Shown in pieces: positions 6,308 through 23,709 of a stretch of 64,000 nt of DNA (within the stretch, counting starts at the first letter, position 1; every line of letters begins with the position of its first letter). Where the stretch lies: contig CP070695.1 in NCBI GenBank assembly GCA_020353515.1, positions 4,300,503 to 4,364,502 of the forward strand. The letters run 5' to 3'. Position numbers and translations under genes: made by a program. The stretch comes from Candidatus Heimdallarchaeota archaeon (GTDB lineage: Archaea; Asgardarchaeota; Heimdallarchaeia; Hodarchaeales; Hodarchaeaceae). Under the pieces are notes generated by a model. The model did no database searches and was not told where the DNA came from. It saw only the letters and a program-made list of their open reading frames with translations.

Positions 6308-7477
6308 TTAAGATCTATAAGAAATTGTAAGATAGAAATTGTAACGTATTGCTTCTTGTTTAAGGTATTGGATATCTTTATTTGAATAACTCCCCTTCCC
6401 TCTGATCCTTACTTTCATAATGGCTATCAATCCGTTTAATTTTTGACTTTGTGAGGAATATATGTCTTTATGGATCCTATAAAGAATATCTAGGGTTTGT
6501 TCTGTATAATCTGTCATGGAGTGTTTATTTAAATCCCAATCAATGAATATCATTCTAATAGCTGGTACCTTATGAAATTTGTACTCAATAGACTGAATTC
6601 CGTCTCGTGACGCATCTATTTGACCAATTATATACCCTTTAGGTTCATTTCTCTCCGCGATGGAGACTCGTTCGAGAGTTCCAGCATAAGAGATCACAGG
6701 ACCTCTAATGGTGTGTGAATTTGGGTTTTTTCCATTATTAAAATGCCACGAATTGTTAGGGTAATTCTGTTTTACAGAACAGTATTCATTAGTTGATTGG
6801 AAAGAATTCATTCTAACATTTTGAAGAAATTGAAAACGATGGACATGACCACAAGCGATGTAGTTAAACTTTTGGGGGATTTCTCGGAACGAAATGACAT
6901 TATGACCTCTTCGAAAGGTGTAATTTTCAATACATGATCCTTCTATTAGCTGATGAATAACTAAGATAGAATAATCCACTTTACTTGTCAGTTTTCCATT
7001 ACTTCGATTCCAACCTCTCTTGACTAGTGAGCTGAATTTCTTCTTGACATATTCTCTAATGTAAGGAAAACCAGTTAACTTGATTGTAACACCATTTCTC
7101 TTAAAAATAAATGAAGTTGGTTTTGTAAACAAGTTGATATTTTCGTTTGAAAAAGGAAGAAGACCTAGAGGAAGTTTACTTCTTTCATGGTTCCCTGGAA
7201 GAATGTAAAGCGGAATCTCTTTGTGGATTGCAGGTTGAAAAGCCTTTACTGCCCGATCAACAACATCAGGTGGAGGTTTACTCCTATTGAAAAAATCTCC
7301 TGAATGAATGATGAAATCAACCTTATGATCTGAAACTGCTTTTTGAATAACGCCAGCTATTTTCTGAAAAAATAAATCCCCATAAGCACGACGGTATAAA
7401 TTCTTGGGATTTAAAGCGTAATGAACACCAAAGTGACTATCACTGATATGTAAAAATCTGATATATTCTTCACTCAC
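6308..7477 (-). CDS. Mre11/SbcD-like metallophosphoesterase (DNA repair exonuclease)
   Basis: HISDSHFG, HSGDFF, PGNHE, IHQ, GHVH, then YAGTLERVSIAERNEPKGY typical of SbcD/Mre11. Confidence 0.85.
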   Translation of the reverse strand: MSEEYIRFLHISDSHFGVHYALNPKNLYRRAYGDLFFQKIAGVIQKAVSDHKVDFIIHSGDFFNRSKPPPDVVDRAVKAFQPAIHKEIPLYILPGNHERSKLPLGLLPFSNENINLFTKPTSFIFKRNGVTIKLTGFPYIREYVKKKFSSLVKRGWNRSNGKLTSKVDYSILVIHQLIEGSCIENYTFRRGHNVISFREIPQKFNYIACGHVHRFQFLQNVRMNSFQSTNEYCSVKQNYPNNSWHFNNGKNPNSHTIRGPVISYAGTLERVSIAERNEPKGYIIGQIDASRDGIQSIEYKFHKVPAIRMIFIDWDLNKHSMTDYTEQTLDILYRIHKDIYSSQSQKLNGLIAIMKVRIRGKGSYSNKDIQYLKQEAIRYNFYLTISYRS

Positions 7478-8074: not shown

Positions 8075-9307
8075 TTATGGCATCCAATCGAGCAATCGGG
8101 GATAGCCTATATCAACAAAATCTTTTTTGATTTCACGGATTTTTTCAAAAATTGGGACCTTAAGTCCTTGAAGCTGGAGATCAGAAATAATTTTTTCGAG
8201 TTTAGGCTGAATATTTTTAATGCCAGCAATCAGTCTAGAATACCCACTTATGTATATTTCAGTTAATATTTCATTAGTATAAAGTGGTAATTCTCTATTT
8301 AATCCGCCTGATAATACCTTTAATCCATCTTCAATCCCCAAACTGTTTGGATCACGGCAGATTTCTAATAATTTCTCAAAACATTCTTTATAAGGATGAT
8401 AAATATTTCGTGCTATTACGCCACGAAGATACATCTGTTTTGTCTGCTCTATATTAAATAATGAGAAAGGAATAGTTGTCATGTATTCCGTCATTAAAAG
8501 GTCTTGAGAATCGACAATAGACCCCGAGAGATCTTGACTTCTTTCATAAATATCTAACGGTAAAACAATGCCAGTAATTTCACGAAATGCATCAATTATC
8601 TCGCCAGGTGTTAGCCGGAATTGAGTATAATAAACACCTACTCCTGTTAACATAATAAAAGCCTCTCCAAGCGTTTCTTCGATTCCTGTCACTGCAAAAT
8701 CAGGTAAAAAAATGACATTATCGTGAATAATAGCATGCACTGGCTGTTTAAGGTAGAATCCTTTGAAATCTTCCCTTTCTATCATTTTACGCCATGATGG
8801 AATGAATAAGATCTGTTTCAAACTACCAAGATCAGTTTCAATAGGTTCTTGAGCTTTTTCAGCTTCTTGGCGTACTTTCATTCTTTCTTCTCTATACTTC
8901 TTTGTCTCTAATTCCTCACGACGTTTAATTTTTTCTGATTTAGTTTTTACAGCTCTATCAAGCTCTGATAACCGTGTTTGGATCTTTGATTCAACCTCTT
9001 TTAAAAAATCCTCCCGTAATTGAGAATATCCATGGTCAGTAAGATATGTTTTAAATTCAAGCAGGGATACGCCTGTCTTTGGGTCATATGGTCCTAATTT
9101 TTCGAAATACTTTTGTATCACTTTCAGAATTTTCTTCTCTCGAGATATTTCCTGTAATTCCTTTCTCAAAGTTAATTTATCTTCTGAATCATTTGATTCA
9201 TACATGGTCAAATTCCCACTATTTTCTTCCAAACTTGACTTCTTTCTGTAATTAAGAGCTTTTCGAGTATGAAAAAATATTCTTTGTATTAATGCTTTGT
9301 CACTCAC
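8075..9307 (-). CDS. Hypothetical protein with a central coiled coil and a globular C-terminal domain
   Basis: 410-aa ORF with a charged helical segment (about aa 100-155). No recognised catalytic motif. Divergent from GTPase 9398. Confidence 0.7.
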   Translation of the reverse strand: MSDKALIQRIFFHTRKALNYRKKSSLEENSGNLTMYESNDSEDKLTLRKELQEISREKKILKVIQKYFEKLGPYDPKTGVSLLEFKTYLTDHGYSQLREDFLKEVESKIQTRLSELDRAVKTKSEKIKRREELETKKYREERMKVRQEAEKAQEPIETDLGSLKQILFIPSWRKMIEREDFKGFYLKQPVHAIIHDNVIFLPDFAVTGIEETLGEAFIMLTGVGVYYTQFRLTPGEIIDAFREITGIVLPLDIYERSQDLSGSIVDSQDLLMTEYMTTIPFSLFNIEQTKQMYLRGVIARNIYHPYKECFEKLLEICRDPNSLGIEDGLKVLSGGLNRELPLYTNEILTEIYISGYSRLIAGIKNIQPKLEKIISDLQLQGLKVPIFEKIREIKKDFVDIGYPRLLDWMP

Positions 9308-9397
9308 AAATCAGATTTGATAGATAAACTTGCTGCTGAATGAAAATATTTTTTATTATTTCAAGGTTAGTTAAAAATAGCTAAGGAGCTTAGTAGA

Positions 9398-10690
9398 GTG
9401 GCAAATAAATTTAATGGTTTGGTCAGATTCAACCCCGATGGTATCAATTTGACAGCCATGGAAAACGCTGTGGTCAAATTAATATTAATTGGGGATGGAA
9501 TGTCTGGTAAAACCCAGATACTAATAACACTTGCTCAATTATTAATAGAATACCTTCAACAGATCTACTCATTATCCATCAATGAATCGGATTTCGATGA
9601 TCCAGCATTTCGTAGTTGGGCAGAAAGACGGGGTTTTTTTCTACGTTATGGCAACATCAAGTGGGATATTAGAACAATCAGTCTTGATACAGAAACGATA
9701 GGACTCGAGGATTTTGAATATGTCTTTCCCTACGTATGGAATGATACTACATACAAGATCAGACTTATAGGAAATGATGTGGGAGGTCAGAACATCTTCC
9801 ATCATTTTAGGGATGTCTTGGCGAAGATGGCTGGTCCTGATGATAATTTGATTGTTGTTTTCGATAAATCAAGGGAATTATCCTGCTATAACAGCATTGA
9901 ACATATAAAAAGAGTTCTTGGGATAATGACAGCAGAGAATGAATCCACCTTATCCAGGATAGCTTATTGTGGAAATAAGATTGATTTAGAGAAACACATT
10001 CGAGAAGAAGAATGGCGTGAAGGAGCACTCAAATCAATTATGGATAAAATTACTGATATTATGAACCATGGGAGAGGAGAGTATTCCTTTCCATCTTTAA
10101 TGGATATTCAAAAAGAAGAACAATGCGTGAAAGCTGATATCACGAACAATCAGATTACGTTCCCAGATTTAGAAGCGCTAATCTACAATGCTATCAGGGA
10201 GTTTGATAGCAAATATAAAACAGATTTAATGAGCGAGGTCAATACAAAAGCCCTTTGTAGAGAGATTTCAGCTCAGCTTGTCTATAACCAGAATGTCACT
10301 ATCCTTGAAGAAGGAAGCACCCAAGCAGAACAAGTGTGGGAAGATCTTCGTACAGTACTCTACCAAACTAGACCCCTAGCCGTTCAATACTCTGCTAGAG
10401 GTAGAATAAAAAAGGATGATGATTCAGCTCACCTTAGTCAAGTACGAGACAAATGGCGCAAATTTGGCTTGAATTTACCGATTACACCAGAAGATATCAA
10501 ATTTGCCCTTCATAGGACCGCCAACGCAGAGGAACTACTTAAGGAGATGGGAGATCGTTTTGACACCAATGCTTTATCTGGTGATGGTATCCTAAAAATG
10601 TTGGAATCTATAACCCAAGAAACCTTAATCAAACTCACACAACCGATTCAAAAGGAAAAACGAGTGAAACGAGAACTAAAAAGATTTTAA
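9398..10690 (+). CDS. Ras/Arf-superfamily GTPase with large insertions (paralog 1)
   Basis: G1 GDGMSGKT (aa 32-39), G2 TIG (T100), G3 DVGGQ (127-131), G4 GNKIDL (192-197), G5-like TNALSGDGI (390-398), polybasic tail. True start may be about 9449-9458. Confidence 0.8.
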   Translation: MANKFNGLVRFNPDGINLTAMENAVVKLILIGDGMSGKTQILITLAQLLIEYLQQIYSLSINESDFDDPAFRSWAERRGFFLRYGNIKWDIRTISLDTETIGLEDFEYVFPYVWNDTTYKIRLIGNDVGGQNIFHHFRDVLAKMAGPDDNLIVVFDKSRELSCYNSIEHIKRVLGIMTAENESTLSRIAYCGNKIDLEKHIREEEWREGALKSIMDKITDIMNHGRGEYSFPSLMDIQKEEQCVKADITNNQITFPDLEALIYNAIREFDSKYKTDLMSEVNTKALCREISAQLVYNQNVTILEEGSTQAEQVWEDLRTVLYQTRPLAVQYSARGRIKKDDDSAHLSQVRDKWRKFGLNLPITPEDIKFALHRTANAEELLKEMGDRFDTNALSGDGILKMLESITQETLIKLTQPIQKEKRVKRELKRF

Positions 10691-12984
10691 ATATCCTGCA
10701 TCGCACGTAATGGCCAAAACGATTCTAGTGTTGGGTTTTCCTTCCTGAATTCAGGGGGGATTAAATTTTCATAAGCCCTAGTCACCAATTTTTGATATTC
10801 TTCAGCATCGTATTGTTCGTTTCCTTTTAAAAGCTGTTCTGCCTTCACACGCTTCTTGTAGTCCTTTGCATGAACATCTAGGATGAGATAACGGATTTTC
10901 ATCCCAGGTTCAACATTTACCCCTAAAGCAGCTAGCTGTTTAGCTGCTATCGCTTGTCGAGAATTGTTGACATATTCATCAGGAGAACGTGAGGGACGAA
11001 TTGCTATCAATAAGTCTTCTAGAGGAACATTTCCTATTTCCAGTTCCGTGCTACATTCCTTCATGAATTTCTCAGCCCGTTGGCTAGCTACTTGAAATTG
11101 TTCTCTTGATCTAGCTTTGGCTAAGATGTTTAACATATTCATTTGGAGTTTCTTGATAAAAGGAGGACTACTTGATTGGCGGATTTCGATACCACGAATC
11201 CGGAACGTTCCATCTGTTTTCAGGCCATAATACCTGTTTAATACCCCTATCCCAGGTTCATGACGACGGGGCAAGAAGATGATCCAGTGGTAATCGCAGG
11301 CATGTTCAACTGGTAGTTTGACAATATCCGCTACTTCTTGACGTAGCTTACGTACCTTGTCGAGCGGGACTGGTTCCTCCTCGGGATCTTTCACCCAAAC
11401 TGAATCTACTATGCCAGCTACAACCTCCAGCCCGTAACGCGAGGCGATTTGCTGAGTGAGAGTTAATCCATGCCTACTGTACGCTGAAATCGCTTCATGT
11501 GATTCAATACGTCCAAAGCGTGCGTTTCGATAACCTGTATATCCAAAACAAGTCACTAAAAGCCATTTAAGCACTTTCTGTCGTCGATCATAATCTGGAT
11601 GAACGTTTCGCTTTGCTTTATAATATTGACGTCGTCGTAGGATGTTTTTAAGTGAAAGACTGATGATACCAAGTCTTTTCGTGCAAACATGGTAATTGGT
11701 AAGAGGTACAAGCTGCCTTTTGTCGTTCGTACAACACGTACAGTTAACAGTTTCAGGAGAAACATTCCTATGAACCATAATATTCGGGTACATTGACAGA
11801 AAATCGAGTTCAACCACATTTGTGTGGAATCCAACCCAGGGGGAAAACACAAGCCCTCCCACATCGGTTTCCATGGTCCAAGCAGGACGGAATGACTCTG
11901 GATCCGCCTTCCTCGCGGGAATTAGTATGTCTCGGTAATAAGCGGTTCGCATCTGTACGGCGGACAAAGTAGTCCCTATGGTACCACGAGCGATTCTTTG
12001 CGGGTCACTACATCCTAATCGCACTAATTCATGAATACCTGCTATATTTCCGTCTTTCCACATAAAACTATTTCCCACGTCATAGTGGTGACGACCCCCA
12101 TCAAAGTAAACGCCGTGCTGTGAGTAAAATATTCTTCCATAAGACATGTAGCTGTGACCCCGACTCCTTTCATCCTTCTGTCGCACATAGCTTCTCAAGG
12201 GACGGAAGCCGCGACCAATACGCAGATGCCCCTCCCCAACCCGTGTAGAACGCTCTGCGATAATCGGAACGAAAGTATCCCCTCCTCGTGTAAATAGGAG
12301 ATCAGGATTAACTTGTTGGACATATCGAATGCTGTTACGTATGATTTCTGCTTCTGTCTGTTCTTCGAAGACAATTGGTTCTTCTTGGTCAATTACTGAT
12401 CTCCGTATCAAGATCTTTGTTATTTTTCCCCGAGAGAGGCTTGAGTCTTCGAAGAAGGGTTGGAACCAGAGCACACGAAATGGTACAGGTTGATAATCCA
12501 TTTGAGTATAGGACTCGAGCAGCTGCCAGTTCTTCAACTGACCGTTGCTGATATCGATCTTTGCATAAGCGTAAGGGAAAAGTTCAGTCTGAAAGCAAAA
12601 CTGTTGCCACAAGCTCAGATCTGCATTGTGGAGATACTCGCCCCAGTACTTTCGTAAGTCTTCATAGGTAGCTCGGATTCGACGAGGGTTGACTCGAATA
12701 CAAAACACAGATGACGGTTTTTGGTTGTGGATAGAAAGGTACTTCGACCTTTTTTCTATTCTTTCAATGTGGGGATGACTCAACAATTGTTTTTCGATGT
12801 AAGGATCAGTCTTCGCGAGGAAAAATTCGGCTGTGAGGGGATAAAAGGCTTGAATTGCCTTCTTCTTAGTGATCCAATGCGTAGTGACCCCCCAATCGGC
12901 AGCTTCGACTTCATGGAGCCATGCGCGGATCCGAGACATGTTAACAGTTCCAATAAGTTGTTTAAGTCTCCCCCTTGTGATCAC
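10687..12984 (-). CDS. polB2: Family B DNA polymerase, PolB2 group, exonuclease domain degenerate
   Basis: Motif A DFLSMYPNIM, motif B KWLLVTCFGYTGY with NARFGRIE, motif C variant GIVDS in place of YGDTDS, NRYYG, RGIEIR. No DxE Exo I motif. Context matches the known PolB2 operon. Confidence 0.85.
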   Translation of the reverse strand: MITRGRLKQLIGTVNMSRIRAWLHEVEAADWGVTTHWITKKKAIQAFYPLTAEFFLAKTDPYIEKQLLSHPHIERIEKRSKYLSIHNQKPSSVFCIRVNPRRIRATYEDLRKYWGEYLHNADLSLWQQFCFQTELFPYAYAKIDISNGQLKNWQLLESYTQMDYQPVPFRVLWFQPFFEDSSLSRGKITKILIRRSVIDQEEPIVFEEQTEAEIIRNSIRYVQQVNPDLLFTRGGDTFVPIIAERSTRVGEGHLRIGRGFRPLRSYVRQKDERSRGHSYMSYGRIFYSQHGVYFDGGRHHYDVGNSFMWKDGNIAGIHELVRLGCSDPQRIARGTIGTTLSAVQMRTAYYRDILIPARKADPESFRPAWTMETDVGGLVFSPWVGFHTNVVELDFLSMYPNIMVHRNVSPETVNCTCCTNDKRQLVPLTNYHVCTKRLGIISLSLKNILRRRQYYKAKRNVHPDYDRRQKVLKWLLVTCFGYTGYRNARFGRIESHEAISAYSRHGLTLTQQIASRYGLEVVAGIVDSVWVKDPEEEPVPLDKVRKLRQEVADIVKLPVEHACDYHWIIFLPRRHEPGIGVLNRYYGLKTDGTFRIRGIEIRQSSSPPFIKKLQMNMLNILAKARSREQFQVASQRAEKFMKECSTELEIGNVPLEDLLIAIRPSRSPDEYVNNSRQAIAAKQLAALGVNVEPGMKIRYLILDVHAKDYKKRVKAEQLLKGNEQYDAEEYQKLVTRAYENLIPPEFRKENPTLESFWPLRAMQDI

Positions 12985-13258
12985 TGCCTGTATTCTGCAG
13001 TCTCTTCTTTAACCTGGCTAGTTCGGCTTTCAATTTTTGAATTTCGGAGTGTTGTCCTATTAACATTGACATCACGACATTATCAAAGATTATGGGGCGT
13101 GTATTTGCAGACGCAGCATCTGCTAGTTGGAAGGCATATAGCCAAAGATCTGTGAAACTGGTTCGATATGGTTCACGTAAACGGTTTGCGTAATGTACCA
13201 GCCAGAGAGCACGCTCTTTTTCAAGCATTCTACGGTAAGATGGTAAAGTTCTGCCCAT
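12962..13258 (-). CDS. Small PolB2-associated protein (arCOG07300-like)
   Basis: Starts MGRTLPSYR, helical with a C-terminal coiled coil. Lies between the RadA-like gene and PolB2, overlapping the PolB2 start. Confidence 0.75.
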   Translation of the reverse strand: MGRTLPSYRRMLEKERALWLVHYANRLREPYRTSFTDLWLYAFQLADAASANTRPIIFDNVVMSMLIGQHSEIQKLKAELARLKKRLQNTGSDHKGET

Positions 13259-13263
13259 AAGAA

Positions 13264-14073
13264 TCACCAGAATTGAGTTAAGGGTACTTGATGCTGTTCT
13301 TCCCTTTCTGCTGTGTGCGAGAGTTTTATCTGAACTACTGGCCCACCTTTTTGGACAGTAAAGAGAAGTGTGTAGTTCTGTCGATTACTGTCAGGCGTTA
13401 CTGCCACTCGAATGACATCAGTAGCCGAATGCGAAAGAAACGTACCTCCAAGCGCTTTGTGCTTTGAGTGAGGCGCATTTTCTGCAGTTGTTATTCCTAC
13501 CAAGTCATATTGCAAACTAAGGCTCTTCAACTTCCCCACTGCCTGTGTCAGCTCGAGAATGGAGGATGTTGACGTTAACTTGTCGTATTCTAGATACTGG
13601 AGCGCTTCTTTTGATAGATAAAGGGACGAAATCTGAGGTACTAAAACAATACGAATACGGGGGTTCGTATCAATCAGTCGAGGAAGTTTCGTGTAAAGAA
13701 TTTCGGTCATTTGATGATAATTAAACGCACGTGATAGTTGAATCCTATCGAGTATTCCCAGTGGATCCAAGCCATGCTTTCTTGCTTCAAGTGAGATCTC
13801 GAAGTATGGAAATAGATTCGCTCCATCAACAAAGGCAAGATCAACACTAGGGTTGCTTATCAGCAGCGATACCGTGAGCTGAGTAATGAAAGCACGTAGG
13901 ATTGAGTTTGGCAAATCTCCCTGAATCAAAGCCAAACTGCCTGGATATAGCACGAATGCGTCATCTAGGTGCGCCATACCAAGTCGAAGGCATCGTTGCA
14001 GCTGCTGATGTCGTACATCAGCTGAAACAAAATTGTCGGGAAGGTCTTCATGATTCCGATAATCTTGGATCAT
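13264..14073 (-). CDS. Inactivated RadA/Rad51-like protein of the PolB2 cassette (ImuA-analogous)
   Basis: RecA-fold signatures FVDGANLF, LDRIQLSRAFNYHQM and GGTFLSHSATDVIRV. Walker A (IQGDLPNSILRAF) and Walker B (IVLVPQISSLY) are degenerate. C-terminal QVPLTQFW PIP box. Confidence 0.8.
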   Translation of the reverse strand: MIQDYRNHEDLPDNFVSADVRHQQLQRCLRLGMAHLDDAFVLYPGSLALIQGDLPNSILRAFITQLTVSLLISNPSVDLAFVDGANLFPYFEISLEARKHGLDPLGILDRIQLSRAFNYHQMTEILYTKLPRLIDTNPRIRIVLVPQISSLYLSKEALQYLEYDKLTSTSSILELTQAVGKLKSLSLQYDLVGITTAENAPHSKHKALGGTFLSHSATDVIRVAVTPDSNRQNYTLLFTVQKGGPVVQIKLSHTAEREEQHQVPLTQFW

Positions 14074-14519
14074 CCTTAGTCACATAAAGGTATACATTCC
14101 CCTTCCTCAAATCCACGACACAGTCTGAGAGATATCTGAAAAAGACAAAAATGAATTGAAGTGCCCGATTGAGGAATCAAACCTATTTGTTCGCTTGACT
14201 AGAATGTAATTACGACCCTCCAGTAACAGAAATACCATCTAAGACTGAGAGAATTCTTGAAATAGGGAGAGATTACTTTTTTATTCTTATGTTCAGCGCC
14301 CTATATCAAATTTTTTATGAATTAATTGTGAAAATTTGATTTTGTCGGTAATAGAATACAATGTTTTTTTAAGGAAGTATGAGCTCTTTAGATAAATAGG
14401 TTTAACTAACAAAGTCATCATTTCTTCAGACAATGAAAATTTTCGTAATCAGCCTCTTTTAATATTGAAGTTTCAAGAACAACAATCAGGACTTGTAATA
14501 CTGCAGGAGAACACCTCAA

Positions 14520-17500
14520 TTGAATAATGACAAAGCTAGACTGTTAAAGGCAATTTGTGATCACCTCAAGCTTGATGACATACCACAGAGCATGGTTTCC
14601 CGTAGATTAACAGTTTTCAAAGCATTTGAAGAAAATGAAGATAAGTTTCATGGGGAAGAATTTCGGCAATGGTTTTGGAATATTTATGAGGAAGGGCATC
14701 CAGAACTCACTGAAGGGAAAATTACCCCCTCATTGATATTTTCATTCATTAACAGTAATTATGATCTAGTAGAAGAAGCATTAAAGCTTGATTCACTAGA
14801 TGAAGCTCTGCAAACTCACGAAGAGATGGCATCAGAGATCTCCGAGGAGTTTAAAGCTATAATTTTGAGAAATAAAACTCAACGAATTCTTGCGGAAGAT
14901 TCCCTGTTTATGAAAAAGCTCCTTGGGAAAGCTAAATCCGAAATATTCCCCTATCCAGAATTTGAAAAAAGGATCCTCAATCATTTTGAAAAAATGCTAG
15001 ATATCTCAGGAAGAGAACTGCTCGAAGAGGCCTCAAAAGCTTATATATGGAATGTTTACAAGGAAGATGAGACAAAGTGTTATAGGCTAATTTTTGAGGA
15101 ATTCATCAAGCATAAGGAGACATATGAGAAGTTAGGGGTGAATTTCAGTTACCCTGAGATGTCTCTTGGAGGGGGACGAAATGTTTCTCAGATTATGGAG
15201 GCGATTCATCGATCTTTTACGCAAAATGTTGGTGGAATTCTAGGATTAAGAAGGATCATTAGCATTGCAAACAGAATAGCGGAGGTGGGCTTTACCGAAG
15301 AAGAAATTATCAACTTCTTTACTGCTTATCTCAGTGGTGGACTAGACTCAACCTTATCTAATCCTCCTGATGGTCATTCATACTTCATTGAAGTAATAAA
15401 AACCTATGATTATGATTTTACAACAAATCTTGACAATTTAGCACCAAAGACGGAATTCAATCCAAAAGAATTGGAAACAACTTTGGATAATTTCTTGCGG
15501 ATTTTAATTCGTATAAAGATAGCTGAATGGTCAAAAAACGTACCTATGGGTGAAGAAATAACGATTATTGACTTAATCACAGAAATTCAGAAAGATGTCT
15601 TAAATCAAATTGAGGATGAAGAAAAACTTCTTCCATTTTTTGAGATGTTTCAAAAAACAGACAAAAATATCCTTGAAACAACTATCACTCATTTTTCAAA
15701 AGAATTAGCTTATTCATATATTCTCAGATTGAGAAGAGGAGGAGTAGAATCCACATTACTTAATTCCTTCAAGATAATGAACCTCAGTGGGGCATCAAAG
15801 ACTATTGGTAATCAAATCTTTGATATAAAAAAGTTTTATGAAACTTTGTATCCTGATTCGTGGCAAATAAAGTTTTATGATGAGTTTATACTTGATATCG
15901 CGAGTAAAGGACTTTCAACATCCTCCAAGCAAACAGTACGAGAACGTTTGAATCTCCTTGTCCAAGAAAGTCCAGGATATTCTGGATCTTCTGCTTATAA
16001 ATTAAAGAAGATAGAACTAGATGTTATTTTTGAAAACTTGAAAATTAATGTTCCTTTAGTACTTCCAGATTTTGGAACAGCAGAGGAAGCTCAAAAATAC
16101 ATTAGTCGAACTTTTTCCATTATTCGATCTGTATTAAGTAAAGTCTGGATAAAAAAAATACTTAGAACAGGATTTGAATTATATATTGAGTCACCTGTAA
16201 AACGTGTTTGGCAAAATGAAATGGAAGATCTGTCTCGGGAACTGGTTAGCTATTATCAGAATGTTGTAACTGTTTTAGGGAGAAAGTCTTCAGAAATTAA
16301 TGAACTTGTTGTTGAAGGACTTAGGGATTCATTAAGTGGGTTATATTTCGTTGATGAAAATGTTAGAGATTCAGAAGTCTTTAATATCTTTGTGAAATTA
16401 CCAGAGAATCCAATTCTTACCGATCGGGATGATGTGGAAAATTATCTGGATTTTGTTTTTGATGAAGGCAAACTCATAATCAACAAAGTATTAAGTAGGG
16501 AAGTTAAGGAGGAAATAGAAAGAAAAACATTTGACCAAGAGATTGAGGAACGAATTTCTCTTGAAAATACTGTAATAGATTGGTTTGTTCGAGCAAGTCA
16601 ATATTATAATTCAATAATTACTGAACTAATTAGTTTAGAAAAGACCACAGATCCCAACGATACGTTATTGAAAACCATTTATGGTGGAACTATATTTCTT
16701 GTAGAAGAATCAATGAAATCTCTCCTTCTAAATCAGAATGAGAAAATTAATAAAGCAAGTTTCCTTAAAATCTTCTTTTTAAAACAAGTTGAAGCACTTA
16801 GAAGCTCTTTTTCTCAATTAAAATTTGATTATAACACTCAAGCAATTATAAATTACGTATTAGCCCAAATTAGATTATGGGATAGGGTGTTTAGACTCCG
16901 AGGAATCCTTTCAGATCTCGAAGCTGATAATAGAATGCGACGAGCGTTAGGGCCAAGTGTTTCAGATAGTCATGAAGATTCTAGAATTGCTAGTTCTCTT
17001 GTTGAGAACCCTGGTTTAAGAGGCCTTATTGCTAGAGAATTTATGGCAGACTGGATAAAAAACTGGGCGAATTCAGTTATAGAGCTTACTGAATCTTATC
17101 TTGAAGAAGTTCTTCCAAATGTTGAGGAAACAGAGAAGGAAAGTTTTGAACAAGAAGTTCTTGGACTGTTATTTAATGGTACAGGGAGAGATGATATTAG
17201 AAATTTTATGGTACCACTAATTGTAGGAAATCTTAAGAAACCCCTAGGTTATGAGACAAGTCCCCTACCACCAGAATTCTCGAAATATAGATACGAGGTA
17301 TTTGCTGAAGCTGTTAAATGCGATTCTCAACTAAGTATATATTTTCTATTTTCAAATTGGGTAGAGAAAGAGAGGAAATACTTTAAGAAACAAGTAGTCA
17401 GTGATTTGGATTTCGTTATATATCAAGAAAGTCAAATTGTCAGTTGTCGACGGTTATTAGGAGCAACACAGGAATTTACTCTGAGTGACGTTGTAAAAAA

Positions 17501-18428
17501 GGCTACTGGCTTAAGCTTATCAGGACTTACCCTCCAAACTGTTGTATTTCAATTAGGTGAGAAGGAAATCTATTCAGCAGCTTCTTATGTTGAGAATCCT
17601 TTTGAAGGTTCAATCGTCACTGGTTTGACTTTGGAACTGATTTCAAAAGAAAATATTCCAATGGGACTGATTCATCCGTTAGCAAAAAATGCTTCAGAAG
17701 CAATTGCAGGCTTAATAGAAAGAAATCAACTGAATGCTTCCGAACCAGACATTCTCTTCAATGCTGTGCTTCAACAGTTGCTGAATGAGGCAAGATTAGT
17801 TTTACTAAAGGATGCTGGGACATTAAGTGAAAGAATAGCAACAGATGAAATGGCACCACAAATAGAGCGTGATGTCTCCCGATGCAATCTAAAGGTTACA
17901 ACTGCATATAAGATGTACTTTAAAGACGATTTACAAGATCAAAGTTACCGCTTGGAGGAAGTTGAATTTTATGGTGAGAAGCTTGACAATTTTGGCTTAT
18001 TTGTACAGCTCATAATACCATTTCTTGAACCAAGTCAAATCATAAGAAAGCGTCTGAAAAAAGATCACCAGCTCTTAGATTATTTAGAAGTCCCCAAGGG
18101 GGAAGAAATCCGAGTTTTTCCTTCTCTTATCATATTTGATGACAACGATAGATATAAAGTTGCTTTTGGAACATACTCATCTCAGGAAAATGCATTATAT
18201 GTTCTTGTTGCAGAAGAAAATGATGAATCGAAGATGGGGTTAAGAACAATCCAATATCTTCTAAAAACAAGAGACTTTGAAGAGCTATCAGAAGATTTAG
18301 GATTATTGCCTCTCCCCAGACTTAATCAGAGTCTACCCCTAAACAGGATTAATGTAATGAAAGAGAAGAGGGGGGAGTATGTAATTGATTTCGAGCTGAT
18401 TAAAAATATTTCATTAGGAGCGATCTAG
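14520..18428 (+). CDS. Large (1302 aa) mostly helical hypothetical protein with predicted longin-like C-terminal domains
   Basis: Long acidic helical ORF whose stop abuts the ATG of GTPase paralog 2. The C-terminal ~340 aa show two beta-beta-alpha-beta-beta-beta-alpha patterns (fold is an inference). Confidence 0.7.
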   Translation: MNNDKARLLKAICDHLKLDDIPQSMVSRRLTVFKAFEENEDKFHGEEFRQWFWNIYEEGHPELTEGKITPSLIFSFINSNYDLVEEALKLDSLDEALQTHEEMASEISEEFKAIILRNKTQRILAEDSLFMKKLLGKAKSEIFPYPEFEKRILNHFEKMLDISGRELLEEASKAYIWNVYKEDETKCYRLIFEEFIKHKETYEKLGVNFSYPEMSLGGGRNVSQIMEAIHRSFTQNVGGILGLRRIISIANRIAEVGFTEEEIINFFTAYLSGGLDSTLSNPPDGHSYFIEVIKTYDYDFTTNLDNLAPKTEFNPKELETTLDNFLRILIRIKIAEWSKNVPMGEEITIIDLITEIQKDVLNQIEDEEKLLPFFEMFQKTDKNILETTITHFSKELAYSYILRLRRGGVESTLLNSFKIMNLSGASKTIGNQIFDIKKFYETLYPDSWQIKFYDEFILDIASKGLSTSSKQTVRERLNLLVQESPGYSGSSAYKLKKIELDVIFENLKINVPLVLPDFGTAEEAQKYISRTFSIIRSVLSKVWIKKILRTGFELYIESPVKRVWQNEMEDLSRELVSYYQNVVTVLGRKSSEINELVVEGLRDSLSGLYFVDENVRDSEVFNIFVKLPENPILTDRDDVENYLDFVFDEGKLIINKVLSREVKEEIERKTFDQEIEERISLENTVIDWFVRASQYYNSIITELISLEKTTDPNDTLLKTIYGGTIFLVEESMKSLLLNQNEKINKASFLKIFFLKQVEALRSSFSQLKFDYNTQAIINYVLAQIRLWDRVFRLRGILSDLEADNRMRRALGPSVSDSHEDSRIASSLVENPGLRGLIAREFMADWIKNWANSVIELTESYLEEVLPNVEETEKESFEQEVLGLLFNGTGRDDIRNFMVPLIVGNLKKPLGYETSPLPPEFSKYRYEVFAEAVKCDSQLSIYFLFSNWVEKERKYFKKQVVSDLDFVIYQESQIVSCRRLLGATQEFTLSDVVKKATGLSLSGLTLQTVVFQLGEKEIYSAASYVENPFEGSIVTGLTLELISKENIPMGLIHPLAKNASEAIAGLIERNQLNASEPDILFNAVLQQLLNEARLVLLKDAGTLSERIATDEMAPQIERDVSRCNLKVTTAYKMYFKDDLQDQSYRLEEVEFYGEKLDNFGLFVQLIIPFLEPSQIIRKRLKKDHQLLDYLEVPKGEEIRVFPSLIIFDDNDRYKVAFGTYSSQENALYVLVAEENDESKMGLRTIQYLLKTRDFEELSEDLGLLPLPRLNQSLPLNRINVMKEKRGEYVIDFELIKNISLGAI

Positions 18429-19814
18429 ATGAATAACCTTTCTTTAACAGGATTTCAACCAAAGAATATTGACTTGACTGAAATGGTTGATGTTGATGTA
18501 AAGAAGGTTGTGATAATCGGCGATGGAATGTCAGGAAAGACTCAAACACTAATAACGTTTGGTAAAAAGATTCTAGTTTATCTTCAGAGAATATATTCTG
18601 CTCGTTCAATTTTAGAAAGGAAATCTTCCAAAGATACTGGATTAGAAGTCGCTCTGGAAACTTTCGGAGATCAATACACTGTGGATCCAGCATTTCAATC
18701 TTGGGCTGAACGTCATGGCTTTCTTATACGATATGGTAACAATAAATGGAATATAGTGTCAGTATCATTAGATACTGAAACAATAGGTTTTGAAGATTTT
18801 CAATTCATTTTCCCCTACTTTTGGGAGAATAAAACATACAGAATCAACTTATTTGGAAGTGATGTAGGCGGACAGAATATCTTTGATCACTTCAGGACTG
18901 TTTTAGGAAAAATCGCAGGAGCTAAGGATATTTTACTTGTTGTTTTTGATAAATCTAGGGCTTTGTCTTGTTGGAATAGCATCGAGCAAGTCCAAAGGGT
19001 TGTGGGGGATAAAATTTCGGAACGAAAATTAGGTCAATCAAATATTCCACGAATCATATACGTGGGTAATAAAATTGACCTAGAAGAACACATCAACAAA
19101 CAAGAATGGCAAAATGGCGTCTCAAGTTCAATAATGAGGAAGATCACTCAAATTTCAGATTATAGGAAAGGAACATATCAATTACCTTCATTAGTTGGGA
19201 GGAAAGGATTGGAGAGAACCTTTCATTTCAAAATAGACAATGGATTTCTTCATTTCCCTGATTTTGAGGCATTAGTTTACAATGCAATTAGAGAGGCTGA
19301 TCCAAACTATAGAACTCATAAAATCATGACAGATGTTAATGCAAAGGCAATTGCTAGGGAAATTTCTGCTCAATTTGTGTTTCAGCGAAAAATTGAGGAG
19401 AAAGAAACAGATAAAGGAACAGAAGATGCAAAATCTGTTATAACTATTTTAGAAGACTTCGGAAAGTTATTATTTCAACGTAGACCTTTAGCAATGCAGT
19501 ATTCAGGAGGAATCGAACAAATTTACGAGACTACAAGTGAAAGTAGTTCATTTGGACGAGTTCGCGTAAAATGGATCGATTATGATGTAAACTTCTATCA
19601 TCTTAAGAGAGAAAATATAAAATTTGCTCTTGAAAGCGCAGCCAATGCAAAAAATCTTTTGACTACTGATATGGGGGAAATTTTTAATACAAATGCATTA
19701 ATAGGAACTGGAATCATGGCCTTATGGGATTCGATTATTCAAGAGAAGCTGAAAGCAGCAACAGCTTTAAAAATAGATAAAAAATCTAAAAAAAGAAAGA
19801 TTAGAAAGTTCTAA
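18429..19814 (+). CDS. Ras/Arf-superfamily GTPase with large insertions (paralog 2)
   Basis: GDGMSGKT, SLDTETIGFEDF, DVGGQ, GNKIDL, TNALIGTGI, tail KKSKKRKIRKF. Collinear with 9398..10690. Confidence 0.8.
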   Translation: MNNLSLTGFQPKNIDLTEMVDVDVKKVVIIGDGMSGKTQTLITFGKKILVYLQRIYSARSILERKSSKDTGLEVALETFGDQYTVDPAFQSWAERHGFLIRYGNNKWNIVSVSLDTETIGFEDFQFIFPYFWENKTYRINLFGSDVGGQNIFDHFRTVLGKIAGAKDILLVVFDKSRALSCWNSIEQVQRVVGDKISERKLGQSNIPRIIYVGNKIDLEEHINKQEWQNGVSSSIMRKITQISDYRKGTYQLPSLVGRKGLERTFHFKIDNGFLHFPDFEALVYNAIREADPNYRTHKIMTDVNAKAIAREISAQFVFQRKIEEKETDKGTEDAKSVITILEDFGKLLFQRRPLAMQYSGGIEQIYETTSESSSFGRVRVKWIDYDVNFYHLKRENIKFALESAANAKNLLTTDMGEIFNTNALIGTGIMALWDSIIQEKLKAATALKIDKKSKKRKIRKF

Positions 19815-19860
19815 ACACATTCTAATAGACTTACTCCTTTAGATCAATCTCTACAAAAAC

Positions 19861-20823
19861 TTGGGAACAATCATGGTTGGAATAATTCTCACTGAAGACG
19901 AATTACAAACCATCTTTGAGATACTTGGCTTAAATGAAAACCAAAGCTTAGTTTATATGACTTTATTATCATTAGGGACATTGACTCTGGGACAAATTAG
20001 TCAGCTCACAGGAATAAATTACATCCAAGTACGAGAATGTATGGACGTTCTGATTGGAGGGGAATATGTCGACTGGACTGGAGGAAAAATCAATAGATAT
20101 TTTGCACGAGAACCCTTTTTAAGAGCATTCTTACTGGCTTATGACCCTCTTACTTTGGTTTCAATCCGTGATACAGCTAAAAAGAAGATTGAGACAATAG
20201 AAAAAGAACTTCAAAAAATTTATGACAATAAGACTCTTCAAAAGATTCAAGATTTAATTAAAAGCCAACAAAAGCATATCGAAGATGAAATATCAGCACT
20301 GACTTTTTCAATCCGTGAAATGAAACGTCGCTTAGATATTCTCTTTCAACTCTCATGTAAAGTGTCTGCAGCAACAACAAAAAGTGAAGGCGGTTTAACA
20401 ACTGATGTAATATATGGAGAAACTACATTTATACTTGTACTAAGAGATATGGTTTCTCGTGCAAAAGCATCACTAACTATCTTAATGCCTCAGGATTATC
20501 CTGAAATCCAAACTTTAATTGCATCAAGTAAATTATCACTTCCTGTCTGTTCTCGTACATTGATTGTTGGTGACTTTGCCAAAGTACCAAAAAATATTCT
20601 TAAAAAAGTCTTTGCTTCAAAAATTAGAATGAAACAGACGACCATTAACTTCTGGGGGTGTGTACGAGACAATGAAGAGGTATTGATAGGGCCTTCACCA
20701 GAGGTTAACGAAGAAATGAATGAATTGATTGGTATTATAAGTACCAATCCCATTATGGTTAAATTTTTTGGGCAACAAATTGGTAGTCTCGCATCAAAAG
20801 GACAAAATTTAACCCTTGAATAA
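19861..20823 (+). CDS. TrmB-family transcriptional regulator
   Basis: N-terminal LGLNENQSLVYMTLLSLGTLTLGQISQLTGI winged HTH, a coiled coil, then a TrmB C-terminal-type domain (IYGE...RAKASLTILMP...VRDNEEVLIG). Confidence 0.75.
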   Translation: MGTIMVGIILTEDELQTIFEILGLNENQSLVYMTLLSLGTLTLGQISQLTGINYIQVRECMDVLIGGEYVDWTGGKINRYFAREPFLRAFLLAYDPLTLVSIRDTAKKKIETIEKELQKIYDNKTLQKIQDLIKSQQKHIEDEISALTFSIREMKRRLDILFQLSCKVSAATTKSEGGLTTDVIYGETTFILVLRDMVSRAKASLTILMPQDYPEIQTLIASSKLSLPVCSRTLIVGDFAKVPKNILKKVFASKIRMKQTTINFWGCVRDNEEVLIGPSPEVNEEMNELIGIISTNPIMVKFFGQQIGSLASKGQNLTLE

Positions 20824-20826
20824 TGA

Positions 20827-23709
20827 CTACACAAACGTACACACTTTTATTTCAAACGGATTGAAGGATAAATTCACCTCATTCCCTGATAATCTGATTA
20901 TATTTTTTTCTGATCCATCTATCTTTATTTCCCTTAATTCAGCAATTGTTTTAGGGAATTGAATTAATGAAATTGTTGTTTCATCTGACAAGTTGAAAAT
21001 TGTAGCGTAAATCTTACCATTTCGAACTCTTAATGAGGATAAACGAATATTGGGATTAAGAATACGGATAATTGGAATTAAGGAGTGGTCTATCGGCTTT
21101 AAGTTATTCAGATAAGAGGTGGTTGGTATTAGTGAAAATACCTCCGAATGGTCATCACTTCTAGAAAACGGTTCGTGTTTAGAGTGTACGATAAAACTAT
21201 AATTAAATTCATAAGATTTATTGAGTTCTTGAGCGCCAGGTGTTGCATAATATGGACCTGCATGTTCAGGTCGTTCAGGGATCCCTGAACGTGAAAGCCA
21301 ACCAATTGATCGAACTAATGTTATAGCAAGACGAGTTCCTTTCACTAATTCTACCTCTGGTAACCCCTGATTCATTACAGTAATAGCACCTTGACCTTTT
21401 TCATCTTCAACCCTAATGAACCTTTTTTGGGGTTGGATTCCTGAAGGCTTTTCGATATAAGATTCGTTTCCTATGGGGTCTCCAAATCGCTTAATATACC
21501 CAAAATGGGTAGTTGTATACGTATGCTGCGAATAATAAGGAAGATCAAAACATATTCGGAGTCTATGATCCTTAGCTGAATTAATTATACTTGTTTTAAT
21601 GTCGATTCGTGACAATTCACGATAAAATCGGAAAGTTGTATTGACTGGGATATCTACTTTTCCAATCCTTTTTTCTCTTGATGAATCAACTTCTTGGAAT
21701 ACTGATAGTTTCATTTTTTGGTTAATTTCACAAAATAGAGGGCCAGAAGCTTTAACTTCTCTTTTTACTTCATTCACTTTAACTGATTCTGGTCCAAGTC
21801 GTCCAAAAGTGTACTCATCTCCACGATCTCCCCAATCTTCAAACTGGTGCAATTTATTATAAGTAACATTATTCACCTTATCTTGTAAATCAAATGTCCC
21901 ATCTTTATGAAAAGTAATATCATAAAACTCATTACTTATACTATCTTTTGAACATAACAATGTTTTAGTTGATTCTAATCCTATTGGTTTGGAACTTATA
22001 GTTACACTAGAGAATCCCCAGGGGGTTAGAGGCATAAGTGACGCATACACCTGTTCAGGCTCTCTAGTGACTAAAATATGGAATTTTTTGTAATTTTTAC
22101 TATTTATCTTTTCAAGAAGATTTTTCTTCAGCATTCCAGCATCTAGATCCCCTATTGGTTTATCAGCAACTAATAAATGAACTTCACAAATATCAGCAGG
22201 TTTTCCGTCAAAGAACCTCACATCATTAATATATAGACCCATTATTTGACGGCCTGGTAACATTTTCATTAATGCCTTAAGTTTGGTTGATCCTATCATC
22301 ATTTCCCAAACTTTATCCGAAGAAGAAATAATAGATTGAACTTCGTATTCTACTCCATCAGGAGTTATAAGTTTCCGTATAGGATCTTTCACAGGTGCTT
22401 TTAGCTCGAAATAGATAGGTAAATCAGCACAATTAGTTGGATTAAAGATTAAAATGGAACTTTCTGAAGCAGGTGTTACAGCAGCTTCTAAAACTTCCAA
22501 TGCTTCCTCAATCATGCCCTCAGTAATTGATTCTGCATATGAATAGCGAAATTTCATCTCCTCATGAGTCTGATCAACTGAACAACCACATATAGAATCA
22601 TGAGGCTGATTTCGAAGGTGCCATTTCCACGCTTGAGTTAAGAATGAGGTTGGATATTCCTCTTTCAAATAATACCATGTGTAGGCATTTAATGGTTCAG
22701 CATAGCGAGTTAAGAGATCTTCTACTTTCTGGTTCCATTGTTTAATCCACATCCGAGCCGAATAGGTATCCTGCAATAAATGAGCCCGAGCGGCTGATCT
22801 CAATTCACCTGTAAATTCAGGAGGAGCATAATTATGTAGTTCTATAAGTTGAAGAAATTTATCAACAAAATCGTCTAGAACGCCTAAAGTTATTTCCTTC
22901 CCTTCAATTTGAACGTGCTGAAGAGTTGAAACTATTTTACCTTTAGGTACCTGATGATCCGTTCCATGGTTGAGTAGATATGCAGGAATAGGAGAGAATG
23001 GGGATAATTGGTTAACAAGATTACTTATTTCATCAGATAACTGATTTACTTCTTCAGGAAGATTGGCTGCATTTCCATATCCGAAAGGAAGGTAGATAGT
23101 TATCATTGAAGTCTTTGCACTCATATTACTCTTCCAAAGGAATGGGACTGTGGTAATCTCTGGGGGTACTCCTCGCCAAACAACTAAGGCCTTGAAATCT
23201 GTTAAATCTCCTATTAATTGGGGAATAGCTCTTGAATGACCAAACATATCAGGGAGATAACCAATATTCATAAGGGGGATATTAAACTCTTGTGCTAGGT
23301 CAAAGCTATATTCCAAATTTCGTAGAAGACTTTCCTGGCCTACTAACCAAATATCAGGAAGTAAATACCAAGGTCCAATACTAATCTTTCCTTCTCGAAT
23401 ATATTGTAACAATTTTTCTTTATTCTCTGGCCGAATTTCTAAGTAATCCTCCAAGATAATGGTTTGACCATCAGCTGTGAAATAGAATTCATGCTCTTCA
23501 AAAATGGCTAACAACTTGTCTACTAACTTGACAAGCTTATACCGGAACTTCTGAAAGGGTAAATACCATTCCCTATCCCAGTGGGTGTGGGGGACGATAT
23601 AAACGTATTTGATTTGGTCTGAATGTTCATTGTTTGTTGTATCCAAGAGACTGTATCTCCAATGAAATTTTAAGAGTGAACTTCTCCTATAATGATGTGA
23701 GTGAATCAC
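20827..23709 (-). CDS. Glycoside hydrolase family 38 alpha-mannosidase
   Basis: VPHTHWDREWY, DGQT, GPWYLLPD, GYLPDMFGH, NQPHDSICGCSVD, DHRLR. True start is probably somewhat downstream of 23709. Confidence 0.92.
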   Translation of the reverse strand: MIHSHHYRRSSLLKFHWRYSLLDTTNNEHSDQIKYVYIVPHTHWDREWYLPFQKFRYKLVKLVDKLLAIFEEHEFYFTADGQTIILEDYLEIRPENKEKLLQYIREGKISIGPWYLLPDIWLVGQESLLRNLEYSFDLAQEFNIPLMNIGYLPDMFGHSRAIPQLIGDLTDFKALVVWRGVPPEITTVPFLWKSNMSAKTSMITIYLPFGYGNAANLPEEVNQLSDEISNLVNQLSPFSPIPAYLLNHGTDHQVPKGKIVSTLQHVQIEGKEITLGVLDDFVDKFLQLIELHNYAPPEFTGELRSAARAHLLQDTYSARMWIKQWNQKVEDLLTRYAEPLNAYTWYYLKEEYPTSFLTQAWKWHLRNQPHDSICGCSVDQTHEEMKFRYSYAESITEGMIEEALEVLEAAVTPASESSILIFNPTNCADLPIYFELKAPVKDPIRKLITPDGVEYEVQSIISSSDKVWEMMIGSTKLKALMKMLPGRQIMGLYINDVRFFDGKPADICEVHLLVADKPIGDLDAGMLKKNLLEKINSKNYKKFHILVTREPEQVYASLMPLTPWGFSSVTISSKPIGLESTKTLLCSKDSISNEFYDITFHKDGTFDLQDKVNNVTYNKLHQFEDWGDRGDEYTFGRLGPESVKVNEVKREVKASGPLFCEINQKMKLSVFQEVDSSREKRIGKVDIPVNTTFRFYRELSRIDIKTSIINSAKDHRLRICFDLPYYSQHTYTTTHFGYIKRFGDPIGNESYIEKPSGIQPQKRFIRVEDEKGQGAITVMNQGLPEVELVKGTRLAITLVRSIGWLSRSGIPERPEHAGPYYATPGAQELNKSYEFNYSFIVHSKHEPFSRSDDHSEVFSLIPTTSYLNNLKPIDHSLIPIIRILNPNIRLSSLRVRNGKIYATIFNLSDETTISLIQFPKTIAELREIKIDGSEKNIIRLSGNEVNLSFNPFEIKVCTFV

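Follow-up and report, generated by a model that had tools for sequence, protein, structure and literature searches.

A giant protein with predicted longin-like domains is translationally coupled to an insertion-bearing Ras-like GTPase in Hodarchaeales-type Asgard archaea

Which genes around an insertion-bearing small GTPase of an Asgard archaeon belong together, and what might its closest neighbor do to it? Small GTPases number in the dozens in Asgard archaea, which also have many proteins of the longin and roadblock types; among archaea, the Hodarchaeales are placed nearest to eukaryotes. Because the GTPases, as described by Tran et al. for MK-D1, are generally not found in operons with roadblock or longin genes (PMC10933270), it is not known which of them is served by which regulator. 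We analyzed a stretch of 64,000 nucleotides (here called the window; contig CP070695.1, positions 4,300,503 to 4,364,502, forward strand) from the closed 4.94-Mb genome of a Candidatus Heimdallarchaeota archaeon. An earlier note on this DNA had proposed an undescribed five-gene signalling system, consisting of a 410-residue protein without a family (8075-9307, minus strand), GTPase 1 (430 residues; 9398-10690, plus strand), a giant orphan protein of 1302 residues (14520-18428, plus strand), GTPase 2 (461 residues; 18429-19814, plus strand), and a TrmB-like helix-turn-helix (HTH) protein (19861-20823, plus strand). The coordinates and distances given for these five open reading frames (ORFs) were all correct and the genes are intact. 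The conserved unit, however, is smaller: it is a two-gene, translationally coupled module made of the giant gene and GTPase 2, and it is restricted to Hodarchaeales-type Asgard archaea.

The coupling is visible in the sequence itself. The giant ORF ends in ...AGGAGCGATC TAG ATG..., and its stop codon (18426-18428) abuts the GTPase 2 start codon at 18429, as the earlier note had said; the junction as a whole (18416-18431, plus strand) comprises AGGAG, the stop TAG, and the ATG of GTPase 2. Whole-genome searches were run over 83 genomes of the class. At all nine intact loci examined (the window, L004, L005, L006, L007, L012, L024, L025, and L026), the giant gene is directly followed by a GTPase of the same family. 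The same adjacency is found in consecutive NCBI locus tags (ACFFAE_06530/06535, ACFFC6_05700/05705, and ACFFFH_03255/03260), some of which may belong to the same assemblies as the loci just listed. In the seven junctions that were read base by base, from two families, the distance from stop to start is 0 to 5 nucleotides and GGAG or GGTG lies upstream. The pair is kept in the sister family (L007 and L012) at only 22% identity for the giant and about 30% for the GTPase, with neighbors that are all different, housekeeping genes unrelated to those of the window (HisRS, a phosphoesterase, an SPFH protein, and PFOR), and at L025 it is flanked by sensor histidine kinases, CheD, and CheR. Conservation of the giant with the GTPase behind it, as a tightly coupled pair, thus held across the loci examined. 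The synteny of all five genes did not: only the giant and GTPase 2 are kept across genomes, and distant loci share those two alone. The giant and the GTPase behind it very probably form one functional unit.

The distribution of this unit is narrow. The GTPase family was found in one order only, in 7 of the 21 genomes of the genus-level group and in both sister-family genomes, and in none of the 59 genomes of other families, which were searched with a single sequence, with a profile, and with the N-terminal part alone; its named database matches all come from Hodarchaeales-type metagenome-assembled genomes. The giant protein shows the same narrow distribution. A hidden Markov model search with the giant in 1.84 billion representative proteins returned 17 clusters, all with E<1e-30 and none weaker.

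We then turned to the GTPases. GTPases 1 and 2 are the only members of their family in the window's genome and share 48% identity over their full length (E 9e-130), and both pass the Pfam Ras threshold, weakly. In an alignment of 44 relatives, the motifs G1 (GDGMSGKT), G2 (T118), G3 (DVGGQ, i.e., DxGGQ), G4 (NKxD), and G5 (TNA) are invariant or near-invariant. The G1 to G5 motifs in order and a complete six-stranded G-domain fold place the family among the Ras-superfamily small GTPases, and judged by its motifs (P-loop, switch I Thr, DxxGQ, NKxD, and (T)NA) GTPase 2 is catalytically complete. What sets the family apart is the spacing of these motifs. The alignment gives 58 to 103 residues between G1 and G2, compared to about 18 in Ras, and 185 to 204 residues between G4 and G5, compared to about 25 in Ras, with 22 to 26 residues between G2 and G3, compared to about 19 to 22 in Arf and Ras. 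In an AlphaFold2 model of the GTPase (predicted local distance difference test [pLDDT] score of 80), two elements break up an otherwise ordinary G-domain core. Insertion 1 (residues 49-112; 18573-18764, plus strand) lies between G1 and G2 after helix alpha1. It is partly disordered in the model (residues 64-82 with pLDDT<50) and contains the near-invariant residues W92, F98, Y102, G103, and W107; its mean length is 80 residues in giant-linked copies versus 65.5 in stand-alone copies. Insertion 2 (residues 221-415; 19089-19673, plus strand) lies between beta5/G4 and beta6/G5 and is modeled as about 190 mostly helical residues with one beta-hairpin. Its invariant residues are the stretch R352-P-L-A-x-Q357 together with R379, F276, E280, Y284, N304, R310, and E311. 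A search for shorter relatives without insertion 2 gave only fragments and a 101-residue remnant.

The last feature of the family is a polybasic C-terminal tail ending in phenylalanine (…KKRKIRKF in GTPase 2; 19764-19811, plus strand). The motif (I/V)(K/R)R(K/R)(I/L)(K/R)(K/R)F-COOH, or a close variant, is present in 41 of the 44 members, in the linked as well as the stand-alone clades. Some eukaryotic small GTPases carry lipid-free polybasic tails, and the tail described here may tether the GTPase to a membrane or another anionic surface. In the model, the C-terminus consists of beta6, G5, alpha5, and the disordered basic tail, with no C-terminal alpha/beta (roadblock) domain.

This architecture bears on the relation between the two paralogs, which the earlier note had suggested might pair as a Rag-like heterodimer. 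A maximum-likelihood tree of 48 GTPases separates them into four groups. The giant-linked groups comprise 18 and 3 sequences, and all 10 copies of known genomic context within them are linked to a giant. GTPase 1 falls in a stand-alone clade of 15 sequences (13 of them from alignment A2), in which all six copies of known context have no giant neighbor. The sister-family outgroup contains both linked and unlinked copies. Since linked copies occur both in the tree groups and in the outgroup family, linkage to the giant is likely to be the ancestral state, with GTPase 1 as a probable later duplicate that stands alone. Either type can also be present in the absence of the other: G048 (91% complete) has a single family member, and G065 has kept GTPase 1 and retains GTPase 2 only as a 101-residue remnant. 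The separate occurrence of linked and stand-alone types and the missing roadblock dimerization domain argue against an obligate Rag-like heterodimer, and that suggestion was dropped. In a third clade of the tree (L014 and L015-L018), the genes were seen to be surrounded, in islands, by four to six further GTPase genes of Arf/Ras/Rag-like type encoding 221 to 475 residues, interleaved with PAS histidine kinases and response regulators and next to ScpB/SMC genes.

To what kind of protein is GTPase 2 coupled? The giant belongs to no family in Pfam, NCBIfam, or PADLOC, its profile gave no match at E<=5 against all PDB sequences, and a feature search of the ESM Atlas with its N-terminal half gave no usable match. 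We divided it into an N-terminal module (residues 1 to about 700; 14520-16619, plus strand), which occurs alone as a 692-residue protein in two genomes (G060 and G061), and a C-terminal half, for which residues 690-1302 (613 residues) were modeled with AlphaFold2 from a 21-sequence alignment (model md7914abc50b7; pLDDT 84, predicted template modeling score 0.86). The model begins with a helical domain (residues 712-947; 16653-17360, plus strand; helices at model residues 23-258), mostly at pLDDT 85-93, for which only generic helical-bundle structural matches were obtained. It is followed by two longin-like domains, the first at residues 963-1096 (17406-17807, plus strand) and the second at residues 1124-1259 (17889-18296, plus strand), and then by a small C-terminal beta/alpha element. 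According to DSSP assignments on the predicted model, both domains have the longin topology beta-beta-alpha-beta-beta-beta-alpha(-alpha). In model numbering, domain 1 runs E274-280, E283-286, H300-312, E314-323, E329-336, E344-353, and H359-407, and domain 2 runs E435-446, E455-463, H466-499, E510-519, E522-531, E536-544, and H552-570. Within the C-terminal half, conservation is highest in domain 1.

Structural comparisons of the predicted domains gave matches of modest strength. With the whole 613-residue C-terminal half, Foldseek returned no match at E<=0.001; rows for RND pumps reflected helical overlap only, and one weak row was a CPLANE subunit. Taken separately, domain 1 had its best matches, weak ones, in the first longin domains of chains in Fuzzy-Inturned and Mon1-Ccz1, and domain 2 had a modest best match in AP-3 sigma. 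The nearest ESM Atlas cluster was eukaryotic DENND11/Avl9, at low template-modeling (TM) scores of 0.25 and 0.33. For these predicted structures the scores are below the level of a secure fold match, yet they are mutually consistent and consistent with the topology. The model therefore leads us to think that the giant's C-terminus probably holds two longin-type domains. Of the earlier description of the giant as longin-like, the predicted topology has stood, and the structural matches lend it modest support only.

Natural variants of the giant gene provide a second view of its domains. In G060 and G061 (90% and 94% complete), only the N-terminal 692 residues are present and no GTPase of the family was found; the C-terminal half and the GTPase have been lost together. 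Because the N-terminal half stands alone in two genomes that lack the GTPase, this module has a function of its own. At these two loci (L010:6692-8770 in G061 and L023 in G060), the 692-residue gene was observed directly upstream of a DUF72 gene. The opposite kind of variant was found in G065 (L008:6025-6330) and in an independent metagenome contig (L027, 8827-9132), where an intact giant is followed by a 101-residue ORF that is a remnant of GTPase 2, covering residues ~350-447, with the basic tail lost. Finally, in two assemblies of a more distant lineage at 28 to 33% identity, with stop/start overlaps of the ATGA or TTGA type, the giant is split. At L028:3098-7122 it is encoded by genes for 968 and 373 residues that overlap in ATGA, and at L029:1-2485 an upstream piece is followed by a 384-residue gene and then directly by the GTPase. 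The second fission gene starts 3 residues before the match to window residue 962 and is collinear to the end of the protein (E 7e-40). The fission point thus coincides with the border that AlphaFold independently predicted at the start of longin domain 1. Since the longin part is a separate gene in some lineages, it is an autonomous unit, and in the one split locus where the next gene can be read (L029), this separate gene lies directly before the GTPase.

Such losses, truncations, and fissions, together with the patchy spread of the pair (7/21 genomes of the genus, 2/2 of the sister family) and the pairing of an orphan giant with a nucleoside triphosphatase (NTPase), could also be read as signs that the pair is an accessory NTPase module, often gained and lost and perhaps serving in conflict (defence-like). 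We regard this as very unlikely, as there were no PADLOC matches, no nuclease or other effector domain, and no flanking mobile-element genes, while the pair is vertically syntenic within the genus and nothing in the GTPase tree points to recent transfer.

How, then, might the giant act on GTPase 2? As an overall explanation, we lean slightly towards a two-gene coupled module in which a longin platform controls the GTPase. The tandem longin domains would form a pseudo-dimeric platform on the switch face of GTPase 2, the platform would set the nucleotide state of the GTPase, most plausibly as an exchange factor, and the basic tail would place the GTPase on the membrane. What is regulated, or what regulates, would be the N-terminal module, the switch being coupled to its activity. 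Longin or roadblock pairs act in this way in Mon1-Ccz1, Fuzzy-Inturned, TRAPP, and MglB (PMC10933270, PMC12383261). The parts of this proposal differ in strength. That the giant and the GTPase bind each other through the longin part has, in our judgment, somewhat better than even prospects, whereas an activity specifically as guanine nucleotide exchange factor (GEF) is less likely than not. It is improbable, though worth stating, that the tandem longin domains represent, in one archaeal chain, what the longin-platform Rab exchange factors of the Mon1-Ccz1/Fuzzy-Inturned type are in eukaryotes, acting on a membrane-tethered GTPase.

Two observations weigh against control by a longin platform. 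The evidence fits a GEF, a GTPase-activating protein (GAP), a scaffold, and an effector alike, and the giant can persist without its cognate GTPase (G065 and L027), perhaps with the stand-alone paralog. The giant might be a downstream effector or passive scaffold that is recruited by the GTP form and has neither exchange nor GAP activity. Conserved adjacency and coupling would be expected of an effector no less than of a regulator; the longin fold is known in non-regulatory roles too, as in SNAREs and adaptor sigma subunits, and the best match of domain 2 is AP-3 sigma; and the large N-terminal module, able to exist alone, could be the working part. However, the best matches of domain 1, weak as they are, are chains of exchange-factor complexes (Fuzzy-Inturned and Mon1-Ccz1), and translational coupling that yields stoichiometric amounts is seen more typically in stable complexes than where an effector makes transient contacts. 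We consider an effector or scaffold role rather unlikely and retain the longin platform as the preferred explanation. Because the pair is kept, coupled, lost together, and split at a domain border, the relation between GTPase and regulator can be tested directly with two recombinant proteins.

The remaining neighbors were assessed for membership in the module. TrmB was the candidate closest to hand: its HTH domain passes the Pfam cut-off (29.5 bits versus 25.6), its gene follows GTPase 2 after 46 nucleotides to a TTG start or 58 nucleotides to the first ATG (19873), and no oligo-T run lies between the two, so that read-through is possible in the window. The earlier note had counted it as part of the system, which its distribution contradicts. 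Orthologs with 59 to 63% identity are present in three genomes that have neither the GTPase nor the giant (G064, G056, and G063), the ortholog of G051 is on another contig than the pair, and TrmB is missing at the pair loci of G048, G051, G069, G070, L024, L025, and L026. Only in the four closest genomes do TrmB and the convergent GH38 alpha-mannosidase gene (20827-23709, minus strand) occupy the position they have in the window. Beyond the GH38 gene follow DUF72 and then an XPB-like helicase. TrmB and the mannosidase as a unit of their own were ruled out, the genes being apart in G064, G051, and G056. We also observed that both halves of the TrmB-like protein match the two ends of a protein of ~770 to 800 residues outside the window (G000:C1:2581950-2584229). 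Nearly every genome of the genus has kept this protein, and the match suggests a larger relative in which a long insert separates the HTH from the C-terminal domain.

The 410-residue gene, also claimed for the system, fared no better, with orthologs in 21 of the 21 genus genomes; the genomes without the GTPase share none of the window's neighbors there. The protein gave no Pfam, NCBIfam, or PADLOC match and no usable match in an ESM Atlas feature search. Its C-terminal ~250 residues belong to a multi-copy family, with 2 to 5 matches in each of the 21 genus genomes and matches in one of the two sister-family genomes; further copies lie at G000:C1:4538356-4539132 and at 6557-7327. A five-gene signalling system, with a paralog heterodimer, the giant as scaffold, the 410-residue protein, and TrmB as output, would be consistent with the integrity of all five genes in the window, with the possible read-through into TrmB, and with the same gene order in the closest relatives (in G066 throughout, and in G067 where its fragmented contigs show it). 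Yet it is contradicted by the distribution of TrmB, of the 410-residue gene, and of the paralogs, by the missing roadblock domain, and by the distant loci that share only giant and GTPase, which leaves it hardly credible.

Between GTPase 1 and the giant lies a cassette (10687-14073) made of a family-B DNA polymerase gene (PolB; 10687-12984, minus strand), an ORF of 101 residues (DUF8156-type), and a RadA-like ORF resembling inactive RadA (13264-14073, minus strand). Its guanine-plus-cytosine content is 0.42 to 0.445, compared to ~0.34 in the surroundings, and in G065 (L009) and L024 PolB contains an intein, giving ORFs of 1275 to 1279 residues. The high-GC block was considered as an insertion between the two GTPases; this was ruled out, as it is a conserved genus-level neighbor of the giant. 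Such neighborhood could place the pair in DNA replication or repair, together with PolB, DUF8156, the inactive-RadA-like gene, DUF72, and the XPB-like helicase. In the window and at L004, L005, L024, and L026, the RadA-like gene and the giant gene diverge, with DUF72 downstream, and in G060 and G061, where just the N-terminal half is left, it is still found near the cassette. A role of this kind is nevertheless quite improbable: the association is missing in L007, L012, and L025, cassette and giant are on different contigs in G065, no DNA-binding or nuclease domain was detected, and the arrangement looks like gene order at the genus level. TrmB, the GH38 mannosidase, the 410-residue gene, and the PolB/RadA-like cassette are recent local gene order and not parts of the module, which leaves the giant and GTPase 2.

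Given the general non-operon arrangement of Asgard GTPases (PMC10933270), such a pair is both unusual and useful. An insertion-bearing GTPase type, which may be the group named Rup3, gains a partner and a domain map, along with a tail that is a candidate for membrane binding. New here are a fold model for the C-terminal half of the partner, the variants in which genes are split or truncated, a tree of the paralogs, and the conserved tail, as well as the exclusion of TrmB, the 410-residue gene, and the heterodimer from the module. Should the longin platform be an exchange factor, it would bear on the origin of eukaryotic longin-type GEFs, and a single-chain longin GEF, if true, would make this the first genomically matched pair of GTPase and GEF in Asgard archaea. 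The reach of these statements is set by a narrow lineage, no eukaryotic sequence relatives, modest fold evidence, and an inferred function.

How does the pair compare with known systems? On the GTPase side, the closest published group is Rup3 (Vargova et al., bioRxiv 10.1101/2024.02.28.582541), a Ras-superfamily group found only in Heimdallarchaeia and named in 2024 with no function. It stands apart from Rab/Ras/Rho, Arf, Rag, and MglA, lacks relatives in eukaryotes, and is described across the class with expansions between G1 and G2 and between G2 and G3, in a figure that covers G1 to G3; no partner gene is mentioned (10.1101/2024.02.28.582541). The window family is likewise restricted to Heimdallarchaeia and expanded between G1 and G2 (58 to 103 residues), but its G2-G3 spacing is nearly normal (22 to 26 residues), its second insertion lies between G4 and G5, and it occurs in one order only. 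By the published description the fit is partial, and the family may belong to Rup3. The word "undescribed" used in the earlier note calls for qualification as regards the GTPase type; for the partner, no paper describing the giant was found. With G-alpha proteins the family shares an insertion between G1 and switch I and a DxGGQ G3 motif, and numerous G-alpha chains appear among its Foldseek matches, with E values near 1e-3. The G-alpha helical domain, however, has ~120 residues, compared to 45 to 85 in insertion 1, where residues 64-82 have pLDDT<50, and the catalytic switch I Arg of G-alpha is absent from the window family, which has DTET before T118. Rag/Gtr proteins carry a C-terminal roadblock dimerization domain, whereas the window GTPases have none.

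On the partner side, DENN-domain Rab GEFs also place a longin-type (uDENN) module in a larger protein, and DENND11/Avl9 was the top ESM Atlas cluster, but with TM-scores of only 0.25 and 0.33, no Pfam DENN match, and another domain order. The tri-longin-domain RabGEF is a heterodimer of two three-longin subunits, while the giant is a single chain with two longin-like domains and a small C-terminal element behind ~950 residues; no second subunit is encoded nearby, no sequence similarity was found, and the structural scores are weak. In MglA-MglB and other prokaryotic pairs of a GTPase and a roadblock or longin protein, the regulator is likewise encoded beside the GTPase. MglB, a GAP, is small and forms a homodimer of roadblock subunits, whereas the partner here has 1300 residues in several domains and two insertions interrupt the core of the GTPase. 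The feature is thus a small GTPase with a longin-type partner, a kind already known, and in the Hodarchaeales-type genomes it is real and narrowly distributed.

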